From Rhodospirillaceae bacterium (lineage in GTDB: Bacteria > Pseudomonadota > Alphaproteobacteria > UBA7887), in assembly GCA_002728255.1 (NCBI GenBank), contig PBWV01000042.1:4602-68601 (forward strand): a stretch of 64,000 bases of DNA, given 5' to 3'. Below the pieces are notes generated by a model. The model saw only the letters and a program-made list of their open reading frames with translations. It was not told the DNA's origin and did not search any database. The translations under genes were made by a program, and so were the position numbers. Positions 39,346-64,000 of this stretch are shown in pieces; positions within the stretch are counted from its first letter, which is position 1, and every line of letters starts with the position of its first letter.

Positions 39346-42252
39346 TTACAACTCGGCCAGACAATCGCGAATAAATCGGATTGGATGTACGGCATTTCTA
39401 CCCGTTTTATTCTTAATTTGATGCCGACACGAGGTTCCAGAAGCGGAAACAGCACATTCTTGATCCATAGATCGTATTGCCGGCGCCAATTCTAATTCAA
39501 CTATTTTGTCCGCCACATGGCTGCTTTTCTTCTGATACCCAAACGACCCCGCCATACCACAACATCCGGATTTTATAACTTCTACATCTACACCCGGTAC
39601 TTGCGCCAAAGACCAAATAGTAGCACTCATTGCACCGGAAGCTTTCTGATGGCAATGACCATGGAGAAATACCTTGGGGTTCGCGGGAGATTTGAAATTC
39701 AGCTTACTCGTGTTTTCATCCTTGGTCCTCTCCAAGTACTCCTCTATCAGCAGAATCTTACTTTTGAATTCTGGACTAATAGATAGAAGTTCTGCCATCT
39801 CCTCTCTCAAACTCAAAATACATGATGGCTCCAAACCAACAATCGGAATTCCAAGCTCTATGTATTTGCTAGCTGATGCAACAAATCTTTGAGCCTCCGT
39901 CATAGCTTGATCAACTAGCCCCATTGATAGAAACGTCCTTCCACAGCATAATGGTCGTTGACTCCCATCTTTTTGGGATAGAATGTTAAACGAATGATTT
40001 CCGGCCTTGAGAACCTCCATGGCTGCATGAACGTTATCGGATTCAAAATAGGTATTAAAACAATCTGCAAAAATAACGACAGATGGCTTTGATACAGAAT
40101 TCTTTTGACTCCGCAAGCGACTTATAGATTTAGGAGAAACCCATTGCGGAAGGGGCTGTTTTGCATCTAAACCAAACAGCCACTCGCCTATTTTACCCAT
40201 TCCTGGTATTTTTCTTCCTTGGTTAGCCAAAAACCATAGACGGGAAACCATTGGAGCATAACGAGGAAAATACGCAATTACTTGATCATAGAATTCTGGT
40301 CGCTCACTTAGATATTTTTGAGCCAACATCTCTATCTTCATCCGCGCCATGTCGACGCCCGTGGGGCACTCCGAACCGCAGGCCTTGCACCCTAAACAGT
40401 ATTTGAGACTATCCTGAACGCCAACGTCGCATAAAGCGTCTTGCCCAAATTTCCCTGACATTGCTAATCTTAGGGTGTTCGCACGCCCTCTAGTTGAGTG
40501 CTCTTCGTCCCGAGTTGCGCGAAAAGACGGACACATAACCCCGCCACTTAACTTTCGACAGGCCCCATTATTGTTACACATTTCCACCGCACCCCCGAGC
40601 CCTCCCCACGAACTCCAGTTAAACCTCGTTTCAGGGCTCTTAATTTCGTAGGTTTCGTCGTATCGCATTAATTTTCGATCATCCATAGATGGTGGCCAAA
40701 CAATCCGCCCAGGATTCATAACATTATGAGGGTCTAAAAATTTTTTAAGCTCTTGGAAACCGCAAACCAGATCTCGACCAAACATTCGCTCATGGAACTC
40801 ACTTCGCACGATTCCATCTCCATGTTCACCAGAATGCGAACCTTTATATTCCCGCACCATTTCAAAAGCTTCTTCCGCTATCTCACGCATTTTCTTTACT
40901 TCGGAATCCAGCTTCAAATTCAATATTGGTCTAACGTGGAGCGTTCCAACGGAGGCATGCGCATACCATGTGCCAGTAGTTCCAAATTTTTCAAAAATTT
41001 CATTCAAACGCCGCGTATATTCCGGAAGATCATTTAAATCTACGGCACAATCTTCAACAAAAGAGATGGGTTTTCCATCTCCCTTCATCGACATAACTAT
41101 ATTTAACGCCTGCTTTCTGACGTTCCACACAGCTTGTTGCGATTTAGAATCGGTTACCGCAGCCACAACACCAGGATATCCAAGATCCCCCATTAATTCA
41201 GTAAGAGAATCCAATCTCTTCTCATTTTCAGTTGCACAATCACCTGCAAACTCTACTAAAAGCACAGATTTTGGGTTACCTATCACCACATTGTCTACAA
41301 CGGCTCTAAAGGCAGGAATTTTTGCAGCTAAATTAATCATTGTTTCGTCAATAAGTTCAACTGCTGTTGGCCCCAGTGAAACAATGTTTTTTGTGGCACG
41401 CATAGCATCATCAAACTTAGCAAAATGACACACTCCTAAAGTACTATATTTAGGCAAATTAGCTAGCTTGAGTTTAATTGATGAGGAAAACGCAAGAGTT
41501 CCCTCAGAACCTACCAAAATATGTGAAAAATTCGGTGAACAACCTCCTTCTTTTAGCAGTGCATCAAGATTATAACCACCTACCCGTCTCATCACTTTTG
41601 GGAAGTTATTTTTGATTACTCCACTGTATTCTTCACCCAACTTTAGCAAAGATTCCGTTATATCTTGAGGTAAACCATTTTTATAGACCTTATCACTAGG
41701 ACCAAACCAGCTCTCCCTTCCATCAGGAAGTATTGCTTTTATTTCCAGCACATTATCACGCATAGTTCCATATTTTATGGAACGGGCCCCACATGAATTG
41801 TTACCTACCATTCCCCCAATCGTAGCTTGAGCAGAGGTAGAAATATCAACAGGGAACCACAAGCCCAAAGGTTTCAGAAAAATGTTCAATTGATCCAGAA
41901 TCATGCCTGGTTGCACAGTTACCGTTAATTCCTCAATGTTTAAGTCGATCAAAGAGTTTAAGTACTTAGAAGTATCGATGACTAAAGAAGTATTTACGGT
42001 TTGCCCACATTGAGAGGTCCCAGCCCCCCTTGCCAACAGAGAAAAACCTTCTTTGGAGGCCAGAGACATCGCAGTCTTAACATCTTGGATGGATTTTGGA
42101 ACTACTATTCCAACCGGATTTATTTGGTATATCGACGCATCCGTTGCATAACGTCCGCGGGTAAAAGTATCAAAATATACATCTCCCTCCACTTCACTCC
42201 TTATGCTTTTCTCCAGCAAGCTAAAATCTCCCTTTGCCACCCGTACCGACAA
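39346..42252 (-). CDS. FAD-binding oxidase fused to an Fe-S (CCG-domain) oxidoreductase; YdiJ / GlcD-GlcF fusion type (2-hydroxyacid dehydrogenase-like)
   Basis: 968 aa. The N-terminus has an FAD_binding_4 domain (GAGTSQCGQ). The middle has 4Fe-4S ferredoxin cysteines (CLGCKACGSECP, CNNNGACRKLSGGVMCP). The C-terminus has CCG repeats (CCGMAGSFGY). Confidence 0.85.
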   Translation of the reverse strand: MSVRVAKGDFSLLEKSIRSEVEGDVYFDTFTRGRYATDASIYQINPVGIVVPKSIQDVKTAMSLASKEGFSLLARGAGTSQCGQTVNTSLVIDTSKYLNSLIDLNIEELTVTVQPGMILDQLNIFLKPLGLWFPVDISTSAQATIGGMVGNNSCGARSIKYGTMRDNVLEIKAILPDGRESWFGPSDKVYKNGLPQDITESLLKLGEEYSGVIKNNFPKVMRRVGGYNLDALLKEGGCSPNFSHILVGSEGTLAFSSSIKLKLANLPKYSTLGVCHFAKFDDAMRATKNIVSLGPTAVELIDETMINLAAKIPAFRAVVDNVVIGNPKSVLLVEFAGDCATENEKRLDSLTELMGDLGYPGVVAAVTDSKSQQAVWNVRKQALNIVMSMKGDGKPISFVEDCAVDLNDLPEYTRRLNEIFEKFGTTGTWYAHASVGTLHVRPILNLKLDSEVKKMREIAEEAFEMVREYKGSHSGEHGDGIVRSEFHERMFGRDLVCGFQELKKFLDPHNVMNPGRIVWPPSMDDRKLMRYDETYEIKSPETRFNWSSWGGLGGAVEMCNNNGACRKLSGGVMCPSFRATRDEEHSTRGRANTLRLAMSGKFGQDALCDVGVQDSLKYCLGCKACGSECPTGVDMARMKIEMLAQKYLSERPEFYDQVIAYFPRYAPMVSRLWFLANQGRKIPGMGKIGEWLFGLDAKQPLPQWVSPKSISRLRSQKNSVSKPSVVIFADCFNTYFESDNVHAAMEVLKAGNHSFNILSQKDGSQRPLCCGRTFLSMGLVDQAMTEAQRFVASASKYIELGIPIVGLEPSCILSLREEMAELLSISPEFKSKILLIEEYLERTKDENTSKLNFKSPANPKVFLHGHCHQKASGAMSATIWSLAQVPGVDVEVIKSGCCGMAGSFGYQKKSSHVADKIVELELAPAIRSMDQECAVSASGTSCRHQIKNKTGRNAVHPIRFIRDCLAEL

Positions 42253-43238: not shown

Positions 43239-44144
43239 GTGGTTAAGATGAGACTAGGCATAAATTTGCCTATTGTGGATATTGGTGGAGACCCCTTAGT
43301 CGTCAAGGACTTTTCCCAGACGGCAGAGGCGTTAGGCTACGACCATTTGGCGTTAGCAGATCATGTGTTGGGCGTAAATGCCGCCAACATACCAAATTGG
43401 GGAAACCGAAATACATCCGCTGATTATTTTCATGATCCATTTCTCCTTTTTTCCTACCTTTCGGCCTGTACCACCCAAATAGAGTTTAGTACGCAGGTCT
43501 TGATACTACCGCAGCGTCAAACTGCCCTAGTTGCCAAACAGGCTGCATGCCTAGATATACTATCCGGCGGGCGCCTCCGCTTTGGAATAGGAATAGGATG
43601 GAACAAAGCTGAATATATTGCCTTAAACGAAAGCTTTAATAACAGAGGCAGGCGTTCGGTGGAACAGATTAGTATTCTTAAGGAGCTTTGGTCAAAACGA
43701 CATGTAAATATTGATGGAGAATGGCACAAAATAACTGACGCAGGAATAAACCCGTTGCCATCTGCGCGATCCATTCCTCTCTGGATTGGCGGGCACGAAG
43801 ATGTGACCCTGCAACGTATCGCTCGATATGGAGATGGTTGGATCATGTTACAGTATCCTCCAGGACAGGAAGCCCAAGAGAAATTTGATCTCTTACGGGC
43901 CTATACCCGAGAAGCGGATAGACCTGAGAGTGAAGTCGGAATAGAGGTATGGACATCCGCTGTAGGAACTCCTGAGGACTGGAGAAAAGAAATTGAATTT
44001 TGGAAAAAGGCCGGAGTAACCCACATTTGTTTGAACAATTCTTTTTCACGCTATCACCACCAAGCTATAGACGACCGCTCCATCAATAGCCACACATCGG
44101 CAATGAAGTTATATAAAGAATCTGTCGAAGATCTTATTTTATAA
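43239..44144 (+). CDS. LLM-class (luciferase-like) flavin/F420-dependent oxidoreductase
   Basis: 301 aa with the TIM-barrel LLM pattern DHL..G and a GGRLRFGIGIGW block. Confidence 0.75.
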   Translation: MVKMRLGINLPIVDIGGDPLVVKDFSQTAEALGYDHLALADHVLGVNAANIPNWGNRNTSADYFHDPFLLFSYLSACTTQIEFSTQVLILPQRQTALVAKQAACLDILSGGRLRFGIGIGWNKAEYIALNESFNNRGRRSVEQISILKELWSKRHVNIDGEWHKITDAGINPLPSARSIPLWIGGHEDVTLQRIARYGDGWIMLQYPPGQEAQEKFDLLRAYTREADRPESEVGIEVWTSAVGTPEDWRKEIEFWKKAGVTHICLNNSFSRYHHQAIDDRSINSHTSAMKLYKESVEDLIL

Positions 44145-51559: not shown

Positions 51560-52048
51560 TCAAGAGTGTCGTCGACGAACAACCCACGGAGATTCGTCGG
51601 TAGCAGGTTGAAAAAAAACACTAACCTCCTCCGCCGCATTACGCCACTCGTCTAGATCTATCTTATGGTTGACCTCAAAAGAATCAAATCCGCATCGTAG
51701 GAGAAATAAATACTGGTCTCTGCGGATATCTCCGACTGCCCGTAATTCATTTTGGTAGCCATATCGTTCTCGTAGCACCCTAGCTGAGCTAAGCCCTCTG
51801 CCATCCGAGAAAACCGGGAAATCCACTGCTATGAGACTAAAATGGCTTGTGGAATCGCCTATCTCTTCAGGAAGTTCCTCAGCCTGCAGGCGGATCCCTA
51901 GAGGTTTATTGCAGTCCGCCAAACTAATCCTGTTGGCTTTCCATGTATCTAAACTAAGTAAAGGGTAGTCTACTCTCAAGGGGTCCTCCCCCTCCTCTAA
52001 TATCCTCCATAAGTCCTTTACAAGTTGTCCATTTTTAAGCAGTGCCAT
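51560..52048 (-). CDS. DUF934-family protein (sulfite-reductase-associated)
   Basis: 162 aa. Its start overlaps the stop of the sulfite reductase gene. DUF934 proteins are characteristically found beside cysI in Alphaproteobacteria. Confidence 0.65.
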   Translation of the reverse strand: MALLKNGQLVKDLWRILEEGEDPLRVDYPLLSLDTWKANRISLADCNKPLGIRLQAEELPEEIGDSTSHFSLIAVDFPVFSDGRGLSSARVLRERYGYQNELRAVGDIRRDQYLFLLRCGFDSFEVNHKIDLDEWRNAAEEVSVFFQPATDESPWVVRRRHS

Positions 52049-53690
52049 AAAGAGATTCCTTAAATGGTTTCATGCCCACCCGGCGATAAGTATCCAAGAA
52101 TCGTTCTCCACTTTCACGCTGTTCAACGTAGGTATCAACTATCGTCTCGACCGCATCCACCACCTCATCATAAGCAAAGGCCCGTCCCACAATTTTTCCC
52201 AACGAAGCATCTTCAGCTCCGCTGCCTCCGAGTGTTATTTGATAGAACTCTTCACCTTTTTTATCGACGCCGAGTACTCCAATATGTCCCACATGATGAT
52301 GGCCACATGCGTTTATGCACCCTGATATCTTTATCTTAAACTCACCAATATCATGCTGCTGTTCAATATCGGAAAATCGCTTCGCAATATCTTGGGCAAC
52401 TGGTATGGAACGAGCATTAGCTAAATTACAATAGTCAAGACCCGGGCAGGTTATCATGTCCGTTATGAGCCCCGCATTAGCCGTAGCTAGACCGCCGTCC
52501 ATCAATTCTTTCCACACAAGATAAACCTCATCAGTTCGGACGTGAGGCAGCACTAGATTTTGCTCATGCGTAACTCGGATTTCATCGTGACTAAATCGTT
52601 CTGCTAGGTCAGCAACCAAATCCATTTGCTCCGCCGAAGCGTCGCCTGGAGGTGCCCCAATTGGTTTTAGTGAAATAGTTATAATAGAGTAGCCCGCTTG
52701 CTTATGGTCACTTACATTTGTCGCGCACCACTGAGCAAAATCAAAATTATCTCTCTTCTCTAGTTCAAATCTTTCCGGTTGGAGCCCAGTAACCGCATAT
52801 TGTGGAGGAGCAAAATAAGATAAAATCCGCGTGAACTCCTCCTTGGGAACAGTTAAAGGACCATCCTTTATCTTTTCCCACTCATTTTCGACAAGAGTTC
52901 GAAACCTCTCAATTCCTACGCTATCAACAAGAATCTTTATGCGCGCCTTATAAAGATTGTCCCGCCTTCCCAACTGATTGTATACTCGAAGTATTGCCTC
53001 TAAGTAGCTTAAAAGATGTTCTTTTTTGAGGAAATCCTTAACCGTAGGGGCGATATAAGGTGTTCGACCTAGCCCTCCCCCAGCGAGCACCTCAAAACCT
53101 GTTTCGCCTGAAGAGCCAACCTTAATCCTTAAGCCGATATCATGAACACGCATTGCAGCACGATCTTCTTCAGTTCCTATAACGGCTATCTTAAATTTTC
53201 GAGGCAGCCACGAAATTTCAGGATGTAAAGTCGACCACTGCCTAACAAGTTCAGCATAGACACGAGGGTCTTCCACTTCACCGGATGCGACTCCCGCAAG
53301 GTGATCTGCAGTAACATTTCTAATACAATTTCCACTTGTCTGAATAGCATGCATTTCAACTTCAGCTAGTTCAGAAAGGATCTCCGGTACATCAACCAAT
53401 TTTGGCCAATTATATTGAATATTTTGGCGTGTAGTAAAATGTCCATAGCTGCGATCATATTTTCTTGCAATGTGTGCCAATTTTCTCATCTGTTTGGATG
53501 CAAGAGTTCCGTATGGAATTGCAACCCTTAGCATATAAGCATGAAGCTGCAAATATAGTCCATTTCGGAGACGTAACTGCTTAAACTCTTCTTCATCAAG
53601 GTCTCCGTTAAGTCTCCGGGTTACCTGTCCACGGAACTGCTGCACTCTTTCCTGGACCAAAGTGTGGTCAAACTCGTCATATCTGTACAT
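52035..53690 (-). CDS. cysI: assimilatory sulfite reductase hemoprotein (nitrite/sulfite reductase family)
   Basis: 551 aa. Sirohaem-Fe4S4 cysteines are in CPGLDYC and CINACGHHHVGHIG. Located in the cys operon. Confidence 0.85.
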   Translation of the reverse strand: MYRYDEFDHTLVQERVQQFRGQVTRRLNGDLDEEEFKQLRLRNGLYLQLHAYMLRVAIPYGTLASKQMRKLAHIARKYDRSYGHFTTRQNIQYNWPKLVDVPEILSELAEVEMHAIQTSGNCIRNVTADHLAGVASGEVEDPRVYAELVRQWSTLHPEISWLPRKFKIAVIGTEEDRAAMRVHDIGLRIKVGSSGETGFEVLAGGGLGRTPYIAPTVKDFLKKEHLLSYLEAILRVYNQLGRRDNLYKARIKILVDSVGIERFRTLVENEWEKIKDGPLTVPKEEFTRILSYFAPPQYAVTGLQPERFELEKRDNFDFAQWCATNVSDHKQAGYSIITISLKPIGAPPGDASAEQMDLVADLAERFSHDEIRVTHEQNLVLPHVRTDEVYLVWKELMDGGLATANAGLITDMITCPGLDYCNLANARSIPVAQDIAKRFSDIEQQHDIGEFKIKISGCINACGHHHVGHIGVLGVDKKGEEFYQITLGGSGAEDASLGKIVGRAFAYDEVVDAVETIVDTYVEQRESGERFLDTYRRVGMKPFKESLYGTA

Positions 53691-53729
53691 CAGTCTAGCC
53701 TCTCATCTTAGCTAAATATATGCTTATGG

Positions 53730-53990
53730 TTATACGGTAGGCCCCATAGCTCGAATTCTCTCCCGCTGGCTTAAAACCTTTAAGCCATCCTTAGTATCTT
53801 CGACATCTATTAAATACAAAGAAACCACTATCTGTGCTTGTTCTCCCAAAGATGCCGAACGGAGTAGTTCAGATCCATCATCAAAAGCTACCAGTGCATC
53901 TTCTAAGTCATGCGACCATTGGTGAGATGCTGTGAAATACACAATTTCACCACCTCTAAGATAATTTGCTGTAGCAACTTTTCCCATCAC
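53730..53990 (-). CDS. DUF2849-family small protein
   Basis: 86 aa. Lies between cysG and cysI. Its stop overlaps the cysG stop region. Confidence 0.55.
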   Translation of the reverse strand: MMGKVATANYLRGGEIVYFTASHQWSHDLEDALVAFDDGSELLRSASLGEQAQIVVSLYLIDVEDTKDGLKVLSQRERIRAMGPTV

Positions 53991-55513
53991 AACACTCCCC
54001 TCCGCGTGCTAACTTGTTGTGGTAAATTTTGCTTCTGCGAAATATTATTTGGGAGACCTCGGACCTTCTCTGCCAACTCCATTACTTCTAATCGAGATTG
54101 CCCTACCACTTCACCAATTACAATTATTGCTGGTGCAATTATATCACTTTCACTAATTAGGAGTGGAAGTGATCCCAACTTTCCAATCACCAATTTTTGT
54201 TCCGGTGTAGTTCCATTCGCAATTACTGCGATTGGCACCTCAGCCGACATGCCATTAGCTATCAAGTTCTGAGAAATATCTTTAGCAACTCCTATTCCCA
54301 TGTAAACCACTAGTGTATGACCTAAATTTGCCAAGGCTTTCCAATTTAGCGCTAATTCTCCATCCCCATGACCTGTGATAAAGGTGACTGCTTGAGAGGT
54401 CTCCCTTAAGGTCATAGGAATACCCGAAACAGCACCGCATCCAAGCGCCGCTGTAATTCCTGGAACTATTTCCACCTCTACCCCATGGCTCATTAAAAAA
54501 GCTCTCTCTTCTCCACCACGACCAAAAACAAATGGATCACCTCCTTTAAGACGAACCACATTTCGGCCAGGTTTGGCCTCCTCAAGAAGAGTGGTATTTA
54601 TTTCATTCTGGCCACATGAGTGGCGTCCTTTGGATTTCCCTACGAAAATCTTTTTCGCTTCTTTGCGAGCCCGTTTTAAGATATCCACACCGACCAGCCG
54701 ATCATAAACTAAAACATCTGCCTCTTGTATTTTTCTGAGCGCCTTCACTGTAAGTAGCTCCGGATCTCCTGGGCCAGACCCCACGATAGTTACCAAACGA
54801 GTAACACTTCCTTCAGACATAATCTGTTTAACTAAATTAGCTACGTCTTTACGTTCTAAACCATTTTTTCTTGAGAGAAATAAACCTGCACTTTCATCTT
54901 TAAGAAGCCTTCGCCAAAATTTTCGACGGAGCTCTAATGTCGGTAAAATTTCTTTTACCGCCGGACGCATTTGAAAAATAAGATCAGCTATAGAGCCAAG
55001 ATCCTGAGGCAAGGATAACTCTAACTCATCCTTTAATTTCGTAACAAGACCGGGAGACCTGCCATTGCTACCAATACCTACTTGAATACTTCCCCTATCC
55101 ACTACTGCCGGAAAAGTGAATGTGGATAATGCTATATTATCAACAACATTTACAGGTATTCTTGCCGCGATCGCAGTCTCTCCAATCAGAATATCATCTT
55201 CAGAACTCTCTGTGGCACTCACAATCAATGTAACCCCTGACAGATCATAGTCACTAAAATTGGCATTAACTATCGAGCATCCACTATATAGCCCTTGTAG
55301 AACCCTCAACTCTTTTGAATGCATTGAGCCCAAAATCGTTACAAAAGCTCCAAAATCTAGAAGCAACCTTGCTTTTTCAATCGCGAGGCTTCCAGACCCT
55401 ACTACTAGGCATTCTTTACGAACCAAATCAACAAACAGCGGCAAATGTCGTCTTATTTCATTTGACCTCACTCCTCTGGCTCGCCTGCCTGAATCAGATG
55501 ATGCCGTAGTCAT
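53987..55513 (-). CDS. cysG: sirohaem synthase (precorrin-2 dehydrogenase / sirohydrochlorin ferrochelatase plus uroporphyrinogen-III C-methyltransferase)
   Basis: 508 aa. The N-terminus has a Rossmann motif VVGSGSLA. The C-terminus has the SUMT motifs VGSGPGDPELLTVKA and VVRLKGGDPFVFGRGGEE. Confidence 0.85.
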   Translation of the reverse strand: MTTASSDSGRRARGVRSNEIRRHLPLFVDLVRKECLVVGSGSLAIEKARLLLDFGAFVTILGSMHSKELRVLQGLYSGCSIVNANFSDYDLSGVTLIVSATESSEDDILIGETAIAARIPVNVVDNIALSTFTFPAVVDRGSIQVGIGSNGRSPGLVTKLKDELELSLPQDLGSIADLIFQMRPAVKEILPTLELRRKFWRRLLKDESAGLFLSRKNGLERKDVANLVKQIMSEGSVTRLVTIVGSGPGDPELLTVKALRKIQEADVLVYDRLVGVDILKRARKEAKKIFVGKSKGRHSCGQNEINTTLLEEAKPGRNVVRLKGGDPFVFGRGGEERAFLMSHGVEVEIVPGITAALGCGAVSGIPMTLRETSQAVTFITGHGDGELALNWKALANLGHTLVVYMGIGVAKDISQNLIANGMSAEVPIAVIANGTTPEQKLVIGKLGSLPLLISESDIIAPAIIVIGEVVGQSRLEVMELAEKVRGLPNNISQKQNLPQQVSTRRGVL

Positions 55514-57354
55514 GCGACATCTCTATGCCAGGTTGATCCGTTGCCGAATTTTTCATTCACATACTTAGCTAACACCTGAATGCACTCTTCAATCGAAAGT
55601 ACCCCTGTATCAATAACAAGATCCGGGTTATCTGGAGCCTCATAGGGAGCATCGATCCCAGTAAATCCGCGAATTTCGCCTCGCCTAGCCTTCGCATAAA
55701 GCCCTTTGGGATCTCGTTCTTCGCACGTTTCAATATTAGCCTTGATGTAGATTTCATGAAAACCAGTCTCCGCTATTTGCCGAGCTCGTTCTCTGTCTGC
55801 CCGATATGGCGAAATAAAAGCACTAATAACTATATTACCAGAATCAGCCACCAGTCGGGCAACCTCCGCAACCCTACGAATATTTTCACCTCTATCTTCG
55901 GGAGAAAAACCCAAATCGCTATTAAGACGATCTCTCACATTATCCCCATCAAGAACATACGACTGCCAACCTCGACGAAACAGCTCATATTCTAGAGCCA
56001 TTGCCAAAGTAGACTTTCCAGAGCCTGATAAACCAGTAAACCACAAAACTCCGCTGTTGTGACCATTTGCTTCAGCACGTTGTTCCAAACTTACTCGGTG
56101 CCCTGTCGGATAGATGTGCCTTTCATCCTTTTCAACAACTCCATCCAGGACGACGCATCCACCAACAACATTATAGCTATCAAAAAGAACCCCCCTAGCA
56201 GTGGGTTCCAGTCTATCGATTGGGTCGACTGCGAACGGAGTTCTACTATGAAGGACAATCTCCGCTACTGAATTTTTCTCAATAGTTGGAGCACTCTCCA
56301 ACGACAAATTGTCTAGGTCTATAACTGCCTTGATCTCACTTACTACTACTTGATGAGTAGCTGTTTGAAATTTTACCTGAAGTTTTGCACCTACTTTTAG
56401 TGGCGTTTTAGCAAACCAAATCAGCCGAACCGTTATATCATGCCCGACACTTGGTCCATTGCCGTGACTATGCACAACATGACCTCTTTCGATGAATAAC
56501 TCCCTATCAAGGGTTAAGGCAACAGATTCACCAGCCCCTGCGGAAACCTTCAAGTCACTATTCCACGCCTCAAGACTGGTAATGACCGCTGTCTTCTCAG
56601 TAGGAGAAAAACAAATTTCATCTCCCACTCTCACACGTCCACTTTCTATTTTTCCCACAATAATACGACGATGATCAAATCGGTAGATATCTTGCACTGG
56701 AATTCGAAGAGGCTCCTCAATAAGCACACTACTAGACTTAAAGGCATGCATAGAAGAAAGAACATCCGAACCAACGTACCACGACATTTTACTAGATGTT
56801 TTACTTAGGTTATCTCCAGTCCGCGCCGAAGCTGGAATAATTCCCTGATATTTGATATTTAATTCATCTAAGTAAGAACTGATTTTTTGTTTTATAAGAC
56901 TAAAGTTCTCCTCCTTATACTCCACTAGGTCCATCTTATTTACTACGACAACAACCTCTTTAACCCCCAATAATTTAAGTAGATAGGTATGACGTTGTGT
57001 CTGTTCCCGCACGCCCTCGGTAACATCTATTAACAACAGTGCTGCGGTTGCATTAGCGGCACCCGTGATCATATTCTTTAAGAATTCCTCATGTCCCGGA
57101 GCATCTATCAAAAGATAATCACGCTTTTTAGTCCGAAGCTCAATCTGAGTAGTGTCTATGGTTATTCCCTGATCCCTCTCGGCCTTAAACGCGTCTAGCA
57201 CAAAAGACCACTCAAACTGCGTTCCGCGCCGGTCTCTCATTGTTTCAATCGCCTCAACCTTGCCGTCAGGTAGATTATCGGTCTCGTACAGCAAGCGCCC
57301 CAAAAGGGTTGATTTTCCGTGGTCAACGTGACCAACTACAACGATCGGCAGCAT
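55510..57354 (-). CDS. cysNC: bifunctional sulfate adenylyltransferase subunit 1 / adenylylsulfate kinase (CysN-CysC fusion)
   Basis: 614 aa. The N-terminus has a GTPase motif GHVDHGKSTL and DAPGH. The C-terminus has an APS kinase P-loop WFTGLSGSGKST. Confidence 0.9.
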   Translation of the reverse strand: MLPIVVVGHVDHGKSTLLGRLLYETDNLPDGKVEAIETMRDRRGTQFEWSFVLDAFKAERDQGITIDTTQIELRTKKRDYLLIDAPGHEEFLKNMITGAANATAALLLIDVTEGVREQTQRHTYLLKLLGVKEVVVVVNKMDLVEYKEENFSLIKQKISSYLDELNIKYQGIIPASARTGDNLSKTSSKMSWYVGSDVLSSMHAFKSSSVLIEEPLRIPVQDIYRFDHRRIIVGKIESGRVRVGDEICFSPTEKTAVITSLEAWNSDLKVSAGAGESVALTLDRELFIERGHVVHSHGNGPSVGHDITVRLIWFAKTPLKVGAKLQVKFQTATHQVVVSEIKAVIDLDNLSLESAPTIEKNSVAEIVLHSRTPFAVDPIDRLEPTARGVLFDSYNVVGGCVVLDGVVEKDERHIYPTGHRVSLEQRAEANGHNSGVLWFTGLSGSGKSTLAMALEYELFRRGWQSYVLDGDNVRDRLNSDLGFSPEDRGENIRRVAEVARLVADSGNIVISAFISPYRADRERARQIAETGFHEIYIKANIETCEERDPKGLYAKARRGEIRGFTGIDAPYEAPDNPDLVIDTGVLSIEECIQVLAKYVNEKFGNGSTWHRDVA

Positions 57355-57393
57355 ATTTTTTTCTTTCCCAGAAACTATTCTTTGATCTTCGGC

Positions 57394-58188
57394 CTACATA
57401 TATCCGTCTTGCCGAAGGCGCTCAAAAGCGTCCTCCGCCTCATGATCCATGGCGCGCCCAGCTCTTTCTGCAATTTTTGTGGTCTGTAATTCTTCTATGA
57501 CCTCGTCAATATCAGAAGCATTACTTTCAACAGGATTCGTAATATCTTGGTCCCCCAGAGACCGATACCGCTGACCCGAGCGAGAAAAGTACAAATCAAT
57601 AATAGGAATGTTCTCCCTTTTGGTATATCTCCAAATGTCTATCTCCCGCCATTGCAAAATTGGATGAATCCTTATGTGGCTGCCAGGAGGCATACGCGTC
57701 GTGTATTGTCCCCAAAATTCAGCTGGTTGATCATGTTGATCCCATTCAGCATTCATCCCTCGTGGACTAAAAACTCTTTCCTTCGCGCGAACCGCCTGTT
57801 CATCTCGTCGAATACCAGCAAAGACACCTGAAAACCTATGCTTGTCCATTATTTTTTTTAGTCCATCTGTTTTGCGAGCGGCAGACCGTGCAGCTGGAGG
57901 AAGACTTGGGTCAACAGAACTTATGGGTGGACATTCTCCTCTAATCAGATCCAAGTTCCATTCCTTCTCAAACTTATCCCGAAACGCATACATCTCGGGG
58001 AACTTTTTTCCGGTATCGACATGCACCACAGGAAACGGAACCCTTCCGAGAAATGCCTTGCGGGCCAACCACAGCATAACATTAGAATCCTTACCTAATG
58101 ACCATAACATCCCCAAAGGATGCATTGTCCTATAGGCTTCCCTAATTATGTAGATGCTCTCATTTTCAAGATGATCCAAATAATCCAT
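57394..58188 (-). CDS. cysD: sulfate adenylyltransferase subunit 2
   Basis: 264 aa with the PAPS-reductase-fold motif SLGKDS and a CysD-like N-terminus (LDHLENESIYIIRE). Confidence 0.9.
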   Translation of the reverse strand: MDYLDHLENESIYIIREAYRTMHPLGMLWSLGKDSNVMLWLARKAFLGRVPFPVVHVDTGKKFPEMYAFRDKFEKEWNLDLIRGECPPISSVDPSLPPAARSAARKTDGLKKIMDKHRFSGVFAGIRRDEQAVRAKERVFSPRGMNAEWDQHDQPAEFWGQYTTRMPPGSHIRIHPILQWREIDIWRYTKRENIPIIDLYFSRSGQRYRSLGDQDITNPVESNASDIDEVIEELQTTKIAERAGRAMDHEAEDAFERLRQDGYM

Positions 58189-58196
58189 TTATAGTC

Positions 58197-59015
58197 TCAC
58201 GTCGCCCGGTGAATCCCGCACTCTGTTTTCCCGCTATCAGCCCACCTTCCGGACCTCTGCTCTCCTCCTACTTCAACAGGCTTAGTGCAAGGAGCACAAC
58301 CTATGGAAAAATAATTTTTGAGAGTTAATGGATGCCTTGGCAAGTTGCGCGCAATGAAATACTCCTTCAATTGCACTGTATCCCAATTAGCAAGTGGATT
58401 TATCTTTATATGTTTTCCAACCAATTCAATGCTTTGAAGTTGCCCTCGCGATTTACTCTGAAAGCGCTTCCTACCTGTAATCCACGCGTCAAATGGATCT
58501 ATGCTCCTCTCTAATGGCACAACCTTTCTGATATGACAACAGTAATCGGCATTAATGCGCCAAAGTTTCCCCTCAGGATCATCGTCAATAATTTCCGCAG
58601 TAGATGGCTTTACGGACCGGACATTGGTTAAACCCAAGTGTGATGCAAGATGATCACGATACTCTAGCGTCTCTCGAAAATGTTTACCGGTTTCTAAAAA
58701 TATTATTGGAATTTCCTTAGAAACCTCTGCAATCAAGCTCAACAATACTGCTGACTCTGCACCGAAAGAGCAAACCGCAGCGATTTTCCCGGGAAACTCC
58801 TCCTTTATCATAGACCTCAGAAGAGCTGCCGCATCCTTTTCCCCATGCAATTTCCTCAGGCGCTCCTCCAACCCTGCTCGGCGAATAGATGCAAGATCAA
58901 CATGGTCATCCTGTTCTAATTTAGGAATTGTATTTTCATTCATTACTAAAAGCCTGTATGGATTTGGTATTCCTTGTAGTGCACAATCTAATTGTCTATG
59001 GCCAATCTGAAACAA
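58197..59015 (-). CDS. cysH: adenylyl-sulfate (APS)/PAPS reductase, Fe-S cluster-containing type
   Basis: 272 aa with the CC...CxxC cluster cysteines (DYCCH, CAPCT) and a C-terminal ECGIH motif, which is typical of APS-type CysH. Confidence 0.85.
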   Translation of the reverse strand: MFQIGHRQLDCALQGIPNPYRLLVMNENTIPKLEQDDHVDLASIRRAGLEERLRKLHGEKDAAALLRSMIKEEFPGKIAAVCSFGAESAVLLSLIAEVSKEIPIIFLETGKHFRETLEYRDHLASHLGLTNVRSVKPSTAEIIDDDPEGKLWRINADYCCHIRKVVPLERSIDPFDAWITGRKRFQSKSRGQLQSIELVGKHIKINPLANWDTVQLKEYFIARNLPRHPLTLKNYFSIGCAPCTKPVEVGGEQRSGRWADSGKTECGIHRAT

Positions 59016-59170
59016 TAGTACCAGGAAATCTCTGGGACCAGCCAGTTATTAGAGCGCACCTATTAGTAAAAATTATTGTTTCTAGCAATAGTTATGGATT
59101 ATTTTGGTATAATTTTTTTTATTATGGCATATAATAAGTAAAATTTACCATATTTTCTTAAGGAGTTGGA

Positions 59171-59620
59171 ATGGATGAAATTGACGTTAAGATTCTGAAA
59201 CTATTACAGCGCAATTGTAATCTTCCAGCATCAGAGATAGCCGAGAAAGTCGGTCTATCAACCTCCCCTTGTTGGAAAAGGATCGCCAGACTTCGTGAAA
59301 CAGGGATAATCAAAAACCAACTTTCCATACTAGATGCCAATAAACTTGGCTTTGGCCTAACCGCTTATGTGAGCATAAAAACTGGGGAACATTCGGGTAG
59401 CTGGTTAGATGAGTTTTCTAAAACTGTAACCAATATGCCTGAGGTAATGGAGTTTCACCGAATGGCTGGAGATGTTGATTACATGCTTAAAGTAATAGTA
59501 GCTGACATTGACTCCTTTGATAAGTTTTATAAACGCCTCATAGCCTCTTCAGCACTAAGCGAAGTTACCACTCGGTTTTCGATGGAAAAAATAAAGGAAA
59601 CAACAGAATTACCAATATAA
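59171..59620 (+). CDS. Lrp/AsnC-family transcriptional regulator
   Basis: 149 aa. The N-terminal HTH is DEIDVKILKLLQRNCNLPASEIAEKVGLS and the C-terminus is a RAM domain. Divergent from cysH. Confidence 0.85.
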   Translation: MDEIDVKILKLLQRNCNLPASEIAEKVGLSTSPCWKRIARLRETGIIKNQLSILDANKLGFGLTAYVSIKTGEHSGSWLDEFSKTVTNMPEVMEFHRMAGDVDYMLKVIVADIDSFDKFYKRLIASSALSEVTTRFSMEKIKETTELPI

Positions 59621-59644
59621 TGCCACTTACTCTAATACTCACAT

Positions 59645-60742
59645 CTACAACTTTGCTATAATTTCCCTAGCAAAAACTTTAAAATTTGTGCGCATTGAAT
59701 TCCTGGGTGGCATCAATACTATCTCTTTTAATCCGGCTTCCTCGAGTTCCTGAATTCGTGCAACAAGTTCATCTGGTTCGCCCACAAGTCCACCAGATAC
59801 CTTTATCATGGAAGGAGTAACAAATCGCCGCTCTTTATCCGGCAAATTAGCGCAATGCCCTTGATGAACCAATAAATGTCTTCGCTCCAGGGGCATTTCT
59901 TTTTCGACATAAATTTTATATGAATTCCAGACATCACGCACTGAGTCTATCACGAAATTATCGTGCCCTTTTTGCCGAAAAAGTTCATACCAAAAGTGCA
60001 AACTCGCCACGACCTGCGCTCCGGTTTCCTCAATCACTCTTTCCGAATTTAATTTCTCCCCAGGCCGTAAAACACATGCAAAAGTCATTACTGTTGAATG
60101 AAAATCTTCTGGTAAGACACGACCTACCTCAGCGGCACCACAATTAATTCGTTTTGAATTCCGAAGAAAAACTGATTTTGGCTCATTCCCGGCACCAATT
60201 CGACCATCCCCGTATACACCAGCCGCCCGAAGAGCCTTTGGACCATTCGCCGCTACATAGAGTGGAATTTTATTTTCAATATCAACACAGCTAAGGTCAC
60301 GCTCTAAAAATTTTATAGGTTGGGTCTTTCCTTTGTAGCAATAATCTACCTCGTCTCCAGCCAATAAACCACGAACAATCCTCAAGTACTCGCTAAATTC
60401 AGTTGGTGAAACTGGATTTTGGCCCATAATCCTCATTGCCGTATGTCCACTCCCAATACCAAGAAACACTCTACCCGGAGCTAATTTGTTAATAGAAGCG
60501 ATGGAGTGCGCCGTAACCGGGGCTAATCTTGTTCCCGCTATTGCTACTCCAGTACCAATCCGAAGACGATGTGTGTTTTGAGCCGCTAGACTCAAAGTAG
60601 CATAGCAATCCGACCAAATCATTTGACTATCAGGCACCCACCCACTATCAAACTTTAGCTCCTCCGGATATGGAAAAATCCCCCAATCATCAATTTTAGT
60701 TGCCACCATCCCACCAAACTTCACCCTACTCTCCCTATTCAC
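59645..60742 (-). CDS. LLM-class flavin-dependent oxidoreductase (luciferase-like monooxygenase)
   Basis: 365 aa with a TIM-barrel LLM pattern (GIGSGHT, LRIG). Confidence 0.75.
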   Translation of the reverse strand: MNRESRVKFGGMVATKIDDWGIFPYPEELKFDSGWVPDSQMIWSDCYATLSLAAQNTHRLRIGTGVAIAGTRLAPVTAHSIASINKLAPGRVFLGIGSGHTAMRIMGQNPVSPTEFSEYLRIVRGLLAGDEVDYCYKGKTQPIKFLERDLSCVDIENKIPLYVAANGPKALRAAGVYGDGRIGAGNEPKSVFLRNSKRINCGAAEVGRVLPEDFHSTVMTFACVLRPGEKLNSERVIEETGAQVVASLHFWYELFRQKGHDNFVIDSVRDVWNSYKIYVEKEMPLERRHLLVHQGHCANLPDKERRFVTPSMIKVSGGLVGEPDELVARIQELEEAGLKEIVLMPPRNSMRTNFKVFAREIIAKL

Positions 60743-60800
60743 TCTTTAAGCAATCAGCATTGTATTTCCAAAGGTAAGTAATACAAACTGACGATGACCC

Positions 60801-61988
60801 TCAGCCATTGATAATTAGAGCTATCTCTTCCTCAGAATAACCAATTTCACTAAGAATTTTACGACTATGCTCGCCAAGGATTGGTTGATGCTCCCTGACT
60901 GGTAATGATTGTCCGTCAAATTGATAAGCTGTATCTGGAACCTTTAATGGCCCCTCTGATGGATGATCGTACTCCCTAAAAAAATCTATATCTCGAAGAT
61001 GCTTATCCAATGTCAAATCAGACAAAGTGTTTACCGGAGTTGCTGGTATATCCGCCTTGGTGAACAAAGACAACCATTCCTCAGTATCTCTTACCACTAA
61101 TAACTCGGCTAATTTTTCATACAAGAGATCGATATTGTCACTGCGGCTAGCCATCGAGAAAAATCGTTCATCGGCCGCATTTTCAGGGGAATCTACGACA
61201 TCCCAAAAATCCACCCAATGTTTATCAGTGTATGGAAGCACCGCAATAAACCCATTCTTAGTTTTATGGGGCAGCCGATACTTTGATAAAACCCTGTCGT
61301 AGCCCATACGTCCTACTGATGGTGAAAAAGTACCCCCTGACTGATGTTCCACGAGGTTAAAACTAACTAATGCTTCGAACATTGAGCACTCTACGTAAGT
61401 TCCCTTCCCTGTGCGCAGGCGCTTTACATAAGCAGCAATAAGCCCGTTAGCAGCCATTAACGCCGCCGTTTTATCTGCAACAATAGAAGGCACCATCTGC
61501 GGCACCCCATCCCTTTCTGCAAAGATACCCGCTAAACCAGAGTTGCATTGAATAATGTCATCGTAAGCGGGCCTGCCCCCATAAGGTCCTGAAGCCCTAT
61601 AACCATGGAGGCCACCATATATGATTCCTGGATTTCGCTCGCAGACCGTTTTTGGATCAAATCCAAGAGTCTTAATTTTTTGAGGTCTAACATTATGAAC
61701 AAACATGTCACTTACGGCTATTAGCCGCCACAAAACATCACGACCTTTCTCTGTTTTCAAATCCAGAACTAGGCTACGTTTATTTCGATTAGACCCCAAG
61801 AAAATGGAACTCATCCCTTTATTTCGGGACGGACCAATCCGCCGCATAGGATCCCCACCGGGAGCTTCTATTTTTATGACATCAGCCCCAAAGTCACCCA
61901 ATAGTTGGGTTGTGTAAGGCCCAAAAACGACCGTGGTAAGATCTAATACTTTAACACCAGAAAGAGGTAAGTTTTCCTCAGAAATCAT
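60801..61988 (-). CDS. CoA-transferase family III (CaiB/BaiF) protein
   Basis: 395 aa with the canonical N-terminus GVKVLDLTTVVFGPYTTQLLGDFGADVIKIE and the catalytic-Asp region IVADKTAALMAANGLIAAY. Confidence 0.85.
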   Translation of the reverse strand: MISEENLPLSGVKVLDLTTVVFGPYTTQLLGDFGADVIKIEAPGGDPMRRIGPSRNKGMSSIFLGSNRNKRSLVLDLKTEKGRDVLWRLIAVSDMFVHNVRPQKIKTLGFDPKTVCERNPGIIYGGLHGYRASGPYGGRPAYDDIIQCNSGLAGIFAERDGVPQMVPSIVADKTAALMAANGLIAAYVKRLRTGKGTYVECSMFEALVSFNLVEHQSGGTFSPSVGRMGYDRVLSKYRLPHKTKNGFIAVLPYTDKHWVDFWDVVDSPENAADERFFSMASRSDNIDLLYEKLAELLVVRDTEEWLSLFTKADIPATPVNTLSDLTLDKHLRDIDFFREYDHPSEGPLKVPDTAYQFDGQSLPVREHQPILGEHSRKILSEIGYSEEEIALIING

Positions 61989-62028
61989 GCTGCGATTCCC
62001 TAATTGAGTTGAAGAGCTCCTCAGATGA

Positions 62029-64000
62029 CTATAATGGTAGGTAATGCTTTAGCACTTTCCAACCCTCTAAGGCAGCGCCCTCTCTTAGAACATCCTCCTC
62101 CGATTCGAAGTTGCTCCGACTTATTTCCTTCAAGATCTCCAGAGTATGTTGTCCGGGCCGTGGTGCAGGACGTAACTCAGCAATAGAGAAACGTTCCGGC
62201 CGCACCCATGTTGGCTCACAGATAGTTGCCTGATATCCAGAGGGATGATCTCCACGTTTTAATCTAAATGAACCACTGTTCATCCAATTTGATTTCGGTT
62301 CCCCTTTATCACGAGTCCTCTTACTACGTATTTGTGCTAAAGTTTCAGTCTTAATAATGCTGGCACCTGCAAGGTGACTAATCTTCCTCTGTACCTCGTC
62401 AAACCTCATTTCTGCAAGAAGTTTAGAGAAAGAATAAATTGTTGCCCCTTCGACACTAAGTGAAGAAGCAAGCCTTCCTTCCTCTTCTGGACGACAACCT
62501 AAATACGCCCACCCGTCGGCCAACCTATAAATCCGTTGCCCAATGCTTACTCCCTGCGCCTCCTGACCTGAGACCTCATTTCCAGGCTTAAAGTTGGAAT
62601 GTGTTACCATAAATGGGAACTGAACTAACTGAGCTCCCATTGCGAGAGAGGTCTGAACAAAAGCGCCGCCCTTACCCCTATTTTTTGCAAGCAATGATTG
62701 AACAATTCCGTTAACAGCCAAAAATCCTGTCATATAGTCAACACAAGAAGCAATCCCATGAAGAGCCGGTCGCTCGGGGCTTCCGTATCTTGCCATTATT
62801 CCACTTGCAGCTTGCAAAACTGGATCAAAGGATGGATCATCCTTATAAGCGCCCCCGTCTACTCCACCCCATGCGCTGATTTGGCACGAAATTATATCTG
62901 GTTTTATTTCTCTCAGTTGCTCGTAACTAATCCCAATTCTCTCAGCTGAAGAGTCTAGAAAATTGTGCAACACAACATCTGACTGCTTCACCAATGAAGA
63001 AAGAATTTTCTTACCTTTCTCTGTTTTCAGGTCAAGGATAATTGCTCGCTTACCCTGATTAACGTCGACACCAAACCACATAGTTGCGTACGGACCTGCG
63101 AACGGTGTTGGAGCATCTATCCTAATCACATCCGCTCCAAATTCTGCCAAGGTTCGCCCAGCCGCAGGACCCGCTATGATATTTGAAAGATCAAGAACCT
63201 TAACACCAGTGAGAATTGGCTTTGAGCTCAGGTTAGCAGATAGTTTTGGGGGTTCTTTTTTTTCAGATAGCCAGTCAACCTCACCTTCAATCCACGATGC
63301 TGAACTCAAGTCCGGAGAACAAATCTTACTCCCATGGATATTTAAATAGCGGTTTGGCTGCCGTATTACTCCCAACCCTGAAGTCTCGAGATCAAGAGTT
63401 ACACCAGCCTCTAATAAAACCGGATCTTGCAACCACTCATGCGTGGTTTGAACAACGCTGGCAGGGACATTCGCATCCCTCAACAAATGCTCCCACTCCT
63501 TAGCTGATTTATGTCGAATTCTTTCCGCAATTAGGGTGATCATCCGACTCCTCCAAAATGTTGTCATCGAATGTGCCGAATTAAGATTATTACCAGCTTT
63601 AGACTCACTATAAGGACTTCCCGCAGTCATGCCCTCTGCGAGCAGTAAATCATAAACACCAACGACCTGCAAAAATGATCGCGTATGGGCAATGTGATCA
63701 GAAGCAACAACGAACAACAACTTTCCATCTTTGCAGACATAAGTGTTAAAACCTGGACGAGCATTAGAATTTAGATACTCTTGAATCCGAACGACGTGCT
63801 CTTTTGAGAGATTTTCGCGGACATCTCGTAGTATAGGCATCATTATTTTACTGATAGATTTGTCTAGCGCTGGAAAATCATAGTGAGATGGAGCGCCGTC
63901 TAATTCCGCTATTAACAAAGCCATAGCAGACATGACTGCATCAGCAAGCGGAACCTCAAATTTCTGACCTAAACCAGTCTTTAAGTATCCAAGATAACCA
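62029..64000 (-). CDS. CoA-transferase family III protein, apparently two tandem domains (partial; N-terminus beyond the window end)
   Basis: Residues ~233-634 of the ORF form a complete family III domain (GVKVLDLSNIIAGPAAGRTLAEFGADVIRID ... VDYMTGFLAVNGIV). The first ~230 residues resemble the C-terminal lobe of the same family (ANVPASVVQTTHEWLQDPVLLEAGV). The frame stays open from the annotated Met at 63933 through the window edge (...GYLGYLKTGLGQKFEVPLADAV-M...), so the true start is upstream. Confidence 0.7.
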   Translation of the reverse strand, partial: GYLGYLKTGLGQKFEVPLADAVMSAMALLIAELDGAPSHYDFPALDKSISKIMMPILRDVRENLSKEHVVRIQEYLNSNARPGFNTYVCKDGKLLFVVASDHIAHTRSFLQVVGVYDLLLAEGMTAGSPYSESKAGNNLNSAHSMTTFWRSRMITLIAERIRHKSAKEWEHLLRDANVPASVVQTTHEWLQDPVLLEAGVTLDLETSGLGVIRQPNRYLNIHGSKICSPDLSSASWIEGEVDWLSEKKEPPKLSANLSSKPILTGVKVLDLSNIIAGPAAGRTLAEFGADVIRIDAPTPFAGPYATMWFGVDVNQGKRAIILDLKTEKGKKILSSLVKQSDVVLHNFLDSSAERIGISYEQLREIKPDIISCQISAWGGVDGGAYKDDPSFDPVLQAASGIMARYGSPERPALHGIASCVDYMTGFLAVNGIVQSLLAKNRGKGGAFVQTSLAMGAQLVQFPFMVTHSNFKPGNEVSGQEAQGVSIGQRIYRLADGWAYLGCRPEEEGRLASSLSVEGATIYSFSKLLAEMRFDEVQRKISHLAGASIIKTETLAQIRSKRTRDKGEPKSNWMNSGSFRLKRGDHPSGYQATICEPTWVRPERFSIAELRPAPRPGQHTLEILKEISRSNFESEEDVLREGAALEGWKVLKHYLPL

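Follow-up and report, generated by a model that had tools for sequence, protein, structure and literature searches.

The window analysed here is a stretch of 64,000 nucleotides (nt) of contig PBWV01000042.1 from a Rhodospirillaceae bacterium, at the right end of which a gene for a tandem family III coenzyme A (CoA)-transferase runs across the edge. Downstream of it on the same strand lie genes for a single-domain family III CoA-transferase (CoAT395) and an LLM-class oxidoreductase (LLM365), followed by a gene for an Lrp/AsnC-family regulator and a block of sulfate-assimilation genes (Table 1). The window has a G+C content of approximately 43% and its gene content is that of an ordinary chromosome, with mfd, genes of the rhamnose-biosynthesis type, a radical SAM gene resembling biotin synthase, and the genes for sulfate assimilation.

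Table 1. Features of the tandem CoA-transferase locus. Positions refer to the window unless preceded by the designation of another locus (L001, L010, L042); residue numbers are those of the full-length protein.
Feature	Position	Strand	Remarks
Tandem CoA-transferase gene	62029..64000	-	Frame open to window edge; 5' 525 nt (residues 1-175) beyond the edge
N-terminal (pseudo-catalytic) CoA-transferase domain, in-window part, residues 176-418	63271..63999	-	Aligned to SUGCT and Brucella Frc
Inter-domain linker, residues ~401-436	63217..63324	-	Poorly conserved; DSSP on AlphaFold2 model
CoA-transferase domain of the C-terminal half (catalytically competent), residues 437-831	62032..63216	-	Pfam, phmmer
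Predicted catalytic Asp596, codon GAC	62737..62739	-	Motif C-V-D-Y-M-T-G-F; aligned to the SUGCT catalytic Asp
Ser162 codon	L001:5565-5567		Beyond the window; N-domain motif P-M-A-S-A-Y-G-G
Single-domain family III CoA-transferase (CoAT395), 395 amino acids	60801..61988	-	CoA_transf_3 1.1e-104, profile 1-366/366
LLM-class oxidoreductase (LLM365), 365 amino acids from GTG (359 in the L001 call)	59645..60742	-	Bac_luciferase 7e-34
Lrp/AsnC-family regulator, 149 amino acids	59171..59620	+	AsnC_trans_reg 5e-19, HTH_24 2e-18
Sulfate-assimilation block	52035-59015	-	Also L010:8519-15400, L042:2845-9744

Translation of positions 62029-63999 of the minus strand yielded 656 sense codons and no stop as far as the window edge, and the peptides GYLGYLKTGLGQKFEVPLADAV-MSAM, ANVPASVVQTTHEWLQDPVLLEAGV and VDYMTG were all present in the product. 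The initial annotation, which had postulated a protein of more than 656 amino acids (aa), was thus right on this point: by searching a metagenome protein collection we obtained the full-length protein (P0001, 831 aa), which is encoded on the 22-kb Tara Oceans contig ERZ908549 k127_956706. On the 17.6-kb locus taken from this contig (L001), the gene occupies L001:5082-7577 and supplies the missing 175 N-terminal residues. Apart from two substitutions, P0001 matched the part of the protein encoded in the window. The contig aligned to window positions 52029-64000 with 99.77% identity (27 mismatches and 0 gaps in 11,972 nt), and it reaches 5.6 kb further upstream than the window edge.

Attention was also paid to the possibility that two adjacent single-domain CoA-transferase genes had been joined by a frameshift error in assembly or sequencing near positions 63930-63940. 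This suspicion was nourished by a TGA in the -1 frame at 63940-63942 and by the length of stand-alone family III enzymes, which is about 400 aa. The ATG at 63933, annotated as a start and already suspected to be internal, turned out to be the codon of M198 (63931-63933) and falls in the motif P192-L193-A194-D195-x-V197, which was invariant over 31 aligned homologues. Residue 198 is situated in the middle of the N-terminal domain, away from the true inter-domain linker at approximately 401-436, and neither a frameshift nor a stop was detected around 63930-63940, where the independent contig aligned without gaps. Furthermore, at least 120 homologues were found among the matches listed (49-100% identity), nearly all of them 800-865 aa in length. 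More than 100 measured about 830 aa, most of which belonged to unrelated assemblies and some to complete chromosomes. Because of the position of the suspected junction within a domain, the lack of any indel in an independent assembly and the uniform length of the homologues, an artefact is effectively refuted and retains a practically negligible probability. The open reading frame at the window edge encodes one real protein of 831 residues in which two domains of the family III CoA-transferase type are fused.

The protein clearly belongs to the superfamily PF02515. Its in-window part matched CoA_transf_3 in two stretches with 249.7 bits, compared to a gathering cut-off of 23.3, the best stretch comprising in-window residues 263-507. 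Each half matched family III CoA-transferases of solved structure (SUGCT, Frc, YfdW/YfdE, MCR, Mct, BbsEF and CaiB). Residues 1-205, of which 1-175 were taken from L001, aligned with the large domains of these enzymes, and residues 320-390 with SUGCT 288-358 and Brucella Frc 289-354. The C-terminal domain matched SUGCT (9br6) in phmmer with an E value of 3.5e-33. The two halves themselves (1-418 and 419-831) were recognizably related, being identical at 29% of positions within their first ~140 residues (E = 2e-14). They are connected by a linker (~401-436) that was the least conserved region of the protein, showing a mean identity of 24% to its own clade, compared to 59% and 72% in the domain cores.

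An AlphaFold2 model built from 31 homologues reached a mean predicted local distance difference test value (pLDDT) of 83.7 and a predicted template modelling score (pTM) of 0.90. In this model the linker contained no helix and only a strand of two residues (410-411) according to DSSP. A pTM of this size over 831 residues fits one compact assembly. Foldseek searches of the PDB returned monomers of SUGCT, Frc, YfdW, Mct and BbsEF, each covering approximately half of the query (target-normalized TM-score ~0.65-0.76, query-normalized ~0.36). Neither sequence nor fold searches of our PDB copy disclosed a structure of a tandem type III CoA-transferase; the hits were single-domain chains.

The initial annotation had placed the catalytic Asp within the VDYMTG region of the C-terminal half and had called for an Asp in a complete first domain as well. 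The former proposal was borne out by the alignment of D596 with the catalytic Asp of SUGCT. The first domain was indeed complete, but it has no Asp at the corresponding site: Ser162 aligned with the catalytic Asp position of Brucella Frc and human SUGCT, so that an equivalent of Frc Asp169 exists in the C-terminal domain only. To determine the conservation of the two sites, 235 full-length tandem proteins, 116 from the clade of the window protein and 119 from the clade of DddD (see below), were aligned by MAFFT. Position 596 was Asp in all 235 sequences (116/116 and 119/119, respectively), and position 162 was Ser in all sequences of both clades. Moreover, the N-domain motif P-x-A-S-A-Y-G was common to all 235 proteins, a degree of conservation exceeding what a merely inactivated site would lead one to expect. 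An engineered Asp169Ser variant of Frc is available in the PDB (1t3z). The covalent tandem is genuine, but because the first domain carries an invariant Ser and no Asp, the fusion is not a simple mimic of a symmetric homodimer with two sites, as had been proposed. Most probably, the tandem protein is an asymmetric pseudo-dimer with one transferase site.

Compared to single-domain family III enzymes (Frc/YfdW, SUGCT, CaiB, Mct, BbsEF), each half shares the fold, and for the C-terminal half an Asp-based class III mechanism would be expected. The heterodimer BbsEF illustrates that non-identical partners can make an interlocked pair. However, the single-domain enzymes are separate chains of ~400 aa acting as dimers, the homodimers having two equivalent sites, whereas in the tandem protein the partners are fused and one site possesses Ser instead of Asp. 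The initial annotation regarded such a covalent tandem as uncommon. The fusion is real, but the architecture has been described before: a network of all 2401 bacterial members of the two-domain class exists, in which the linker is poorly conserved (PMC6006322). DddD was the sole member characterized until PtmU4, which forms thioacids, was added, and in PtmU4 and its two-domain homologues Asp is conserved in the C-terminal domain (PMC6006322). With its homologous halves, the poorly conserved linker and D596 in each of the 235 proteins, the window protein agrees with the definition of this class, for which the asymmetry of the sites is typical.

The closest characterized architecture is that of DddD, an enzyme of Marinomonas sp. 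MWYL1, Halomonas HTNK1, Sinorhizobium fredii NGR234 and others, which is composed of two CaiB domains, residues 1-416 and 439-821 (PMC7174347). Its catalytic aspartate is required, and the C-S bond is cleaved on the CoA thioester (PMC4437653). As reference we used the product of the tandem gene on pNGR234b of Sinorhizobium fredii NGR234, which is listed among the ratified DddDs (Table S9 of PMC9327192); it was the one ratified sequence compared, the Marinomonas sequence being left out. The window protein was collinear with NGR234 DddD from residue 6 to residue 830, with 30.4% identity, and both share a length of ~830-837 aa, two tandem CaiB-like type III domains with nearly identical limits (here ~1-418 and 437-831), a variable linker and a catalytic Asp in the C-terminal domain only. 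In Marinomonas DddD, Asp602 is said to have been recognized as the catalytic residue by Alcolombri et al. in 2014. Since the alignment is collinear over the full length and both proteins contain the N-domain motif P-x-A-S-A-Y-G and the C-terminal YLP motif, a common ancestral tandem is indicated. The residues flanking the Asp are different, ASCVDY[MI]TG in the window clade versus HVGTIDVMCG in DddD.

In a neighbour-joining tree, the window clade and the DddD clade split at the root. Identities between the clades amounted to 30-32% (30-31% for the window protein and other DddD-clade proteins), whereas a database search gave at least 70% identity of NGR234 DddD to proteins from Rhizobiales, Halomonadaceae, Rhodoferax and Granulosicoccus. 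One of the Halomonadaceae proteins is annotated as 'dimethylsulfoniopropionate cleavage enzyme DddD'. A protein encoded on pDSHI01 of Dinoroseobacter shibae (WP_012187170.1), a full-length tandem of 826 aa annotated only as 'CoA transferase', shared 45% of its residues with NGR234 DddD, as against 31% with the window protein, and branched on the DddD side. Members of the window clade were recovered by a genome scan mainly from uncultured Proteobacteria, plus Candidatus Entotheonella. Proteins with 61-63% identity came from metagenome-assembled genomes (MAGs) of Alphaproteobacteria MarineAlpha9_Bin6, uncultured Alphaproteobacteria and Rhodospirillaceae from Tara runs, while those with 44-56% identity came from Candidatus Entotheonella, Hyphomicrobiales, Burkholderiales, unclassified Gammaproteobacteria, sponge-associated Rhodospirillaceae and cultured Bradyrhizobium. 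The GTDB representatives do not include the species of the window itself. On these sequence comparisons, the window protein appears to be a DddD-type two-domain CoA-transferase and not a DddD, sharing the ancestral tandem but belonging to a separate, deep and uncharacterized clade.

These data were used to assess whether the protein is nevertheless a true DddD orthologue, i.e., a CoA-transferase/lyase for dimethylsulfoniopropionate (DMSP) that uses acetyl-CoA and releases dimethyl sulfide (DMS) and 3-hydroxypropionyl-CoA. Its length, the two-domain layout, the C-domain Asp and the ASAYG motif are all as in NGR234 DddD, the DNA is of marine origin (Tara Oceans contig), and the locus adjoins sulfur-assimilation genes. 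On the other hand, an identity of 30-31% stands against values of at least 70% among DddDs of Alpha-, Beta- and Gammaproteobacteria. The criteria in use in the field demand that a DddD be no shorter than 800 aa, that it share 40% identity or more with a ratified protein and that it group with ratified sequences in a tree (PMC9327192). The window protein reaches the length, but falls below this identity and lies in a clade of its own. Expression in Escherichia coli of a DddD-like protein whose similarity to Marinomonas DddD was 35.6% did not lead to cleavage of DMSP (PMC6309047). Furthermore, typical ddd clusters comprise dddT (encoding a BCCT transporter), dddB/dddC or dddA/dddC and a gene for a LysR or IclR regulator (PMC10746254). 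No dddT, dddB/dddC or LysR gene was detected among the called genes of the L001 locus and the window neighbourhood; in their place stand genes for LLM oxidoreductases, for another CoA-transferase and for an Lrp regulator. On the basis of identity, tree position and gene context, we rejected DddD orthology, which we consider quite improbable.

Even less can be said in favour of a thioacid synthase of the PtmU4 type, which we regard as highly improbable. PtmU4 is the other characterized two-domain member, likewise has its Asp in the C-terminal domain only (PMC6006322) and is a monomer in solution, fitting a single-chain pseudo-dimer. In addition, a distant homologue of the window protein (P0044, locus L006) adjoins a gene for an AMP-binding acyl-CoA synthetase. 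However, PtmU4 has a much shorter N-terminal part, with ~600 aa (619 with tag) and Asp430 (PMC6006322 supplement), far below the 831 aa and Asp596 found here. The thioacid group stems from Actinobacteria, Beta- and Gammaproteobacteria and has a PtmA3 homologue in genetic proximity (PMC6006322). PtmU4 is paired with the acyl-CoA synthetase PtmA3 and with sulfur-carrier proteins, whereas neither an AMP-binding ligase nor a ThiS/MoaD-like carrier was found among the called L001 genes. The PtmU4 type is thus unlikely on length and context, the distinction being drawn from the published description and not from a sequence comparison.

The tandem gene is part of a same-strand run on L001 that encodes a DUF169 protein (244 aa), an LLM protein of 322 aa (LLM322), the tandem CoA-transferase, CoAT395 and LLM365, with gaps of ~16-105 nt. 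The four genes from LLM322 to LLM365 are separated by ~40-105 nt, CoAT395 starting 40 nt downstream of the tandem gene. The core LLM322-tandem-CoAT395(-LLM365) recurred completely or partially, within the limits of each contig, at loci whose tandem proteins were 77% (L004/L005), 61-63% (L009/L010/L011) and 56% (L042) identical to that of the window. Immediately downstream of the tandem gene, CoAT395 was found in L004, L005, L009, L010, L011 and L042 (62-84% identity). L004 and L010 had LLM365 at the corresponding place, whereas L042 lacked it. For the Lrp gene, place and direction were the same in L010 (70% identity) and L042 (66%). Thus, the proposed linkage of CoA-transferases, LLM and Lrp genes holds in related genomes, and judged by the same-strand gaps, the tandem gene is probably co-transcribed with CoAT395 and two LLM genes in this marine alphaproteobacterial subclade.

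Pfam supported the assignment of the neighbours as an Lrp regulator, an LLM protein and a stand-alone CoA-transferase, and the Lrp regulator also gave NCBIfam hits. The best PDB relatives of CoAT395 were the Brucella formyl-CoA transferase and human SUGCT (~1e-55). For LLM365, the designation 'LLM monooxygenase' proved over-specific. It is an LLM-class oxidoreductase whose best NCBIfam and PDB matches were the F420-dependent methylene-tetrahydromethanopterin reductase Mer, far below the cut-off. LLM322 came nearest to flavin mononucleotide (FMN)-dependent models of the luciferase/MupA type, well below their cut-offs. None of the four proteins reached the cut-off of any NCBIfam equivalog (succinate-glutarate CoA-transferase, Frc, Mct, CaiB, Mer and SsuD among them), which precludes the transfer of a specific function. 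The Lrp gene is convergent with the LLM365 gene (24 nt between the stop codons) and divergent from cysH, and for this reason its target genes are ambiguous. A scan of positions 58800-64000 for promoters and terminators yielded no more sites than shuffled sequence, and an Rfam scan of the window and L001 for riboswitches and other elements revealed nothing but a tRNA-Ser.

Directly beside the CoA-transferase cluster and divergent from the Lrp gene lies the sulfate-assimilation block, which is complete and encodes cysH-like (PAPS_reduct) and cysD-like products, a cysN-cysC fusion of 614 aa (GTP_EFTU and APS_kinase), a cysG-type sirohaem synthase, a DUF2849 protein and a sulfite reductase (NIR_SIR). 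The whole arrangement LLM, tandem, CoAT, (LLM), Lrp, cysH, cysD, cysNC, cysG, DUF2849, sir was syntenic in the window/L001, L010 and L042, with ~50-84% identity of the shared proteins. This synteny could be inherited gene order or a hint of a link to sulfur metabolism.

Taken as the latter, the cluster might serve the salvage of an organosulfur carboxylate. The CoA-transferases would activate a sulfur-containing acid, e.g., sulfino-, sulfo- or sulfoniopropionate, a C-S bond of the thioester would be cleaved with the help of the LLM proteins to yield sulfite, sulfide or a volatile sulfur compound, and sulfite or sulfide would enter the adjacent cysH-cysD-cysNC-cysG-sir pathway under a shared Lrp regulator. 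Such a scheme agrees with the synteny in three lineages whose proteins are only ~50-84% identical and with the divergent arrangement of Lrp and cysH in each of them. In Advenella and Variovorax, 3-sulfinopropionate is activated by class III CoA-transferases before it is desulfinated, and SsuD, SfnG and DmoA are members of the LLM family, two points that would suit this scheme. Moreover, the paralogue DddD cleaves its C-S bond on a CoA thioester (PMC4437653). Against it, related genomes may simply have inherited the gene order vertically, no sulfonate-monooxygenase model was reached by either LLM protein (SsuD E = 1e-5 or weaker versus 1e-31 for Mer-like models), no transporter is encoded within the block, and more distant family members do not reside beside cys genes. 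We hold this explanation to be rather improbable. The same small chance is given to the wider idea that the window clade represents another functional branch among the DddD-type CoA-transferase/lyases, acting on a marine organosulfur carboxylate other than DMSP, or on one with an onium or leaving group, and connected via a shared Lrp regulator to the neighbouring operon of sulfate/sulfite assimilation for sulfur salvage in uncultured marine Alphaproteobacteria. Its corollary for the whole class, DddD included, would be that the Ser motif of the N-domain may mark a second catalytic site, of a non-transferase kind (lyase/hydratase), and not a dead one.

We are reasonably confident of the more restrained interpretation that the gene encodes one two-domain type III (CaiB/BaiF/Frc-type) CoA-transferase of 831 residues, with the architecture of DddD but from a separate clade, forming a pseudo-dimer with a single site in the C-terminal domain. 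According to the model and to homology, the two halves would pack as a single-chain equivalent of a family III dimer, a single-chain pseudo-dimer with one active site being the most likely reading. By analogy with other family members, for which the class III mechanism has been demonstrated, Asp596 would form an acyl-aspartyl anhydride and aspartyl-CoA thioester intermediates. The N-terminal half is probably an obligatory structural partner that completes the one active site, and not a second catalytic centre. The enzyme is predicted to take CoA from an acyl-CoA and pass it on to a small carboxylate, and, as in DddD, the bound thioester might undergo a further reaction. CoAT395 and the two LLM-class flavin/deazaflavin oxidoreductases might handle preceding or following steps, and the cluster of the marine subclade suggests a short pathway of carboxylate activation and oxidation. 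By every criterion tested, i.e., sequence, tree and gene context, the substrate would be one other than DMSP. The designation 'uncharacterised acyl-CoA pathway', given in the initial annotation, seems a fair description.

Several observations weigh against this interpretation or confine it. That the Ser motif was retained in two clades sharing only 30% identity points to some role that constrains the N-domain site, and this site may not be a purely structural relic. The interlocked single-chain pseudo-dimer is derived from the pTM of 0.90 and from homology. Furthermore, members of the clade with at most 55% identity had unrelated surroundings and no partner CoA-transferase. Their tandem genes were isolated, accompanied by genes for enoyl-CoA hydratases, short-chain dehydrogenases/reductases (SDRs) and an acyl-CoA synthetase, or adjacent to an acetoacetyl-CoA-synthetase-like gene. 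Because the neighbours differ outside the marine subclade, any pathway deduced from the operon is limited to close relatives. Clustering of the neighbours at 36 loci of the family did not disclose a universal partner gene, CoAT395 being confined to the marine subclade; the calling of reading frames for this clustering was crude, with shadow frames in loci of high G+C content.

What is new is the clade sister to DddD with its conserved marine gene cluster, whereas the fusion architecture and the asymmetry of the sites, typical of the class, were known. To a specialist the result will not be surprising, and the gain for genome annotation is modest. DddD is a main bacterial route from DMSP to the climate-active gas DMS, and proteins of the same asymmetric design, though with other neighbours, form a sister clade that is widely distributed in uncultured marine and sponge- or soil-associated Proteobacteria. 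Counts of dddD in metagenomes that are based on hidden Markov models or on architecture can therefore include proteins other than DddD unless a filter for identity or tree position is applied. The window clade also provides a comparative handle for separating architecture-wide from DMSP-specific residues and thus material for studies on the mechanism of DddD. It touches the question of how an Asp-bearing and a Ser-bearing half in one chain perform both transfer and lyase chemistry.

Some further genes in the vicinity deserve mention. The gene for the DUF169 protein (PF02596, 244 aa; L001:3257-3991, plus strand) is located beyond the window, 16 nt upstream of LLM322. The protein gave no NCBIfam hit, and tblastn revealed no counterpart in the other family loci examined. 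Just beyond the window edge, L001:53-3136 (plus strand) encodes an acidic repeat protein of more than 1,000 aa that is rich in Gly, Asp, Thr and Ser and contains RTX-like repeats of the GGxGxD type. A comparable repeat protein is encoded at the same place in L010 (L010:38-1480), where L004 has a FecR-domain protein of 1,395 aa. At a larger distance within the family, locus L006 (L006:8971-17069) of a betaproteobacterial MAG (CP070643.1) harbors a 53%-identical tandem member in an acyl-CoA context unlike that of the marine cluster, flanked by genes for two enoyl-CoA hydratases, an acetyl-CoA-synthetase-like ligase of 670 aa, two SDRs and a class II aldolase.

Additional LLM-class genes were identified at window positions 43239-44144 (plus strand, 301 aa) and, as a pair, upstream of the cluster in L004 (L004:1650-3529). 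They suggest that the LLM family is expanded in the lineage of the window alongside CaiB-type transferases. A similar pairing, of expanded FMN/F420-dependent monooxygenases with CaiB/BaiF transferases, has been described for SAR202 genomes (PMC5395668). Finally, positions 39346-42252 (minus strand) of the window encode a protein of 968 aa in which a flavin adenine dinucleotide (FAD)-linked oxidase (FAD_binding_4 and FAD-oxidase_C) is fused to a 4Fe-4S dicluster domain and which resembles glycolate or D-lactate dehydrogenase-like enzymes.

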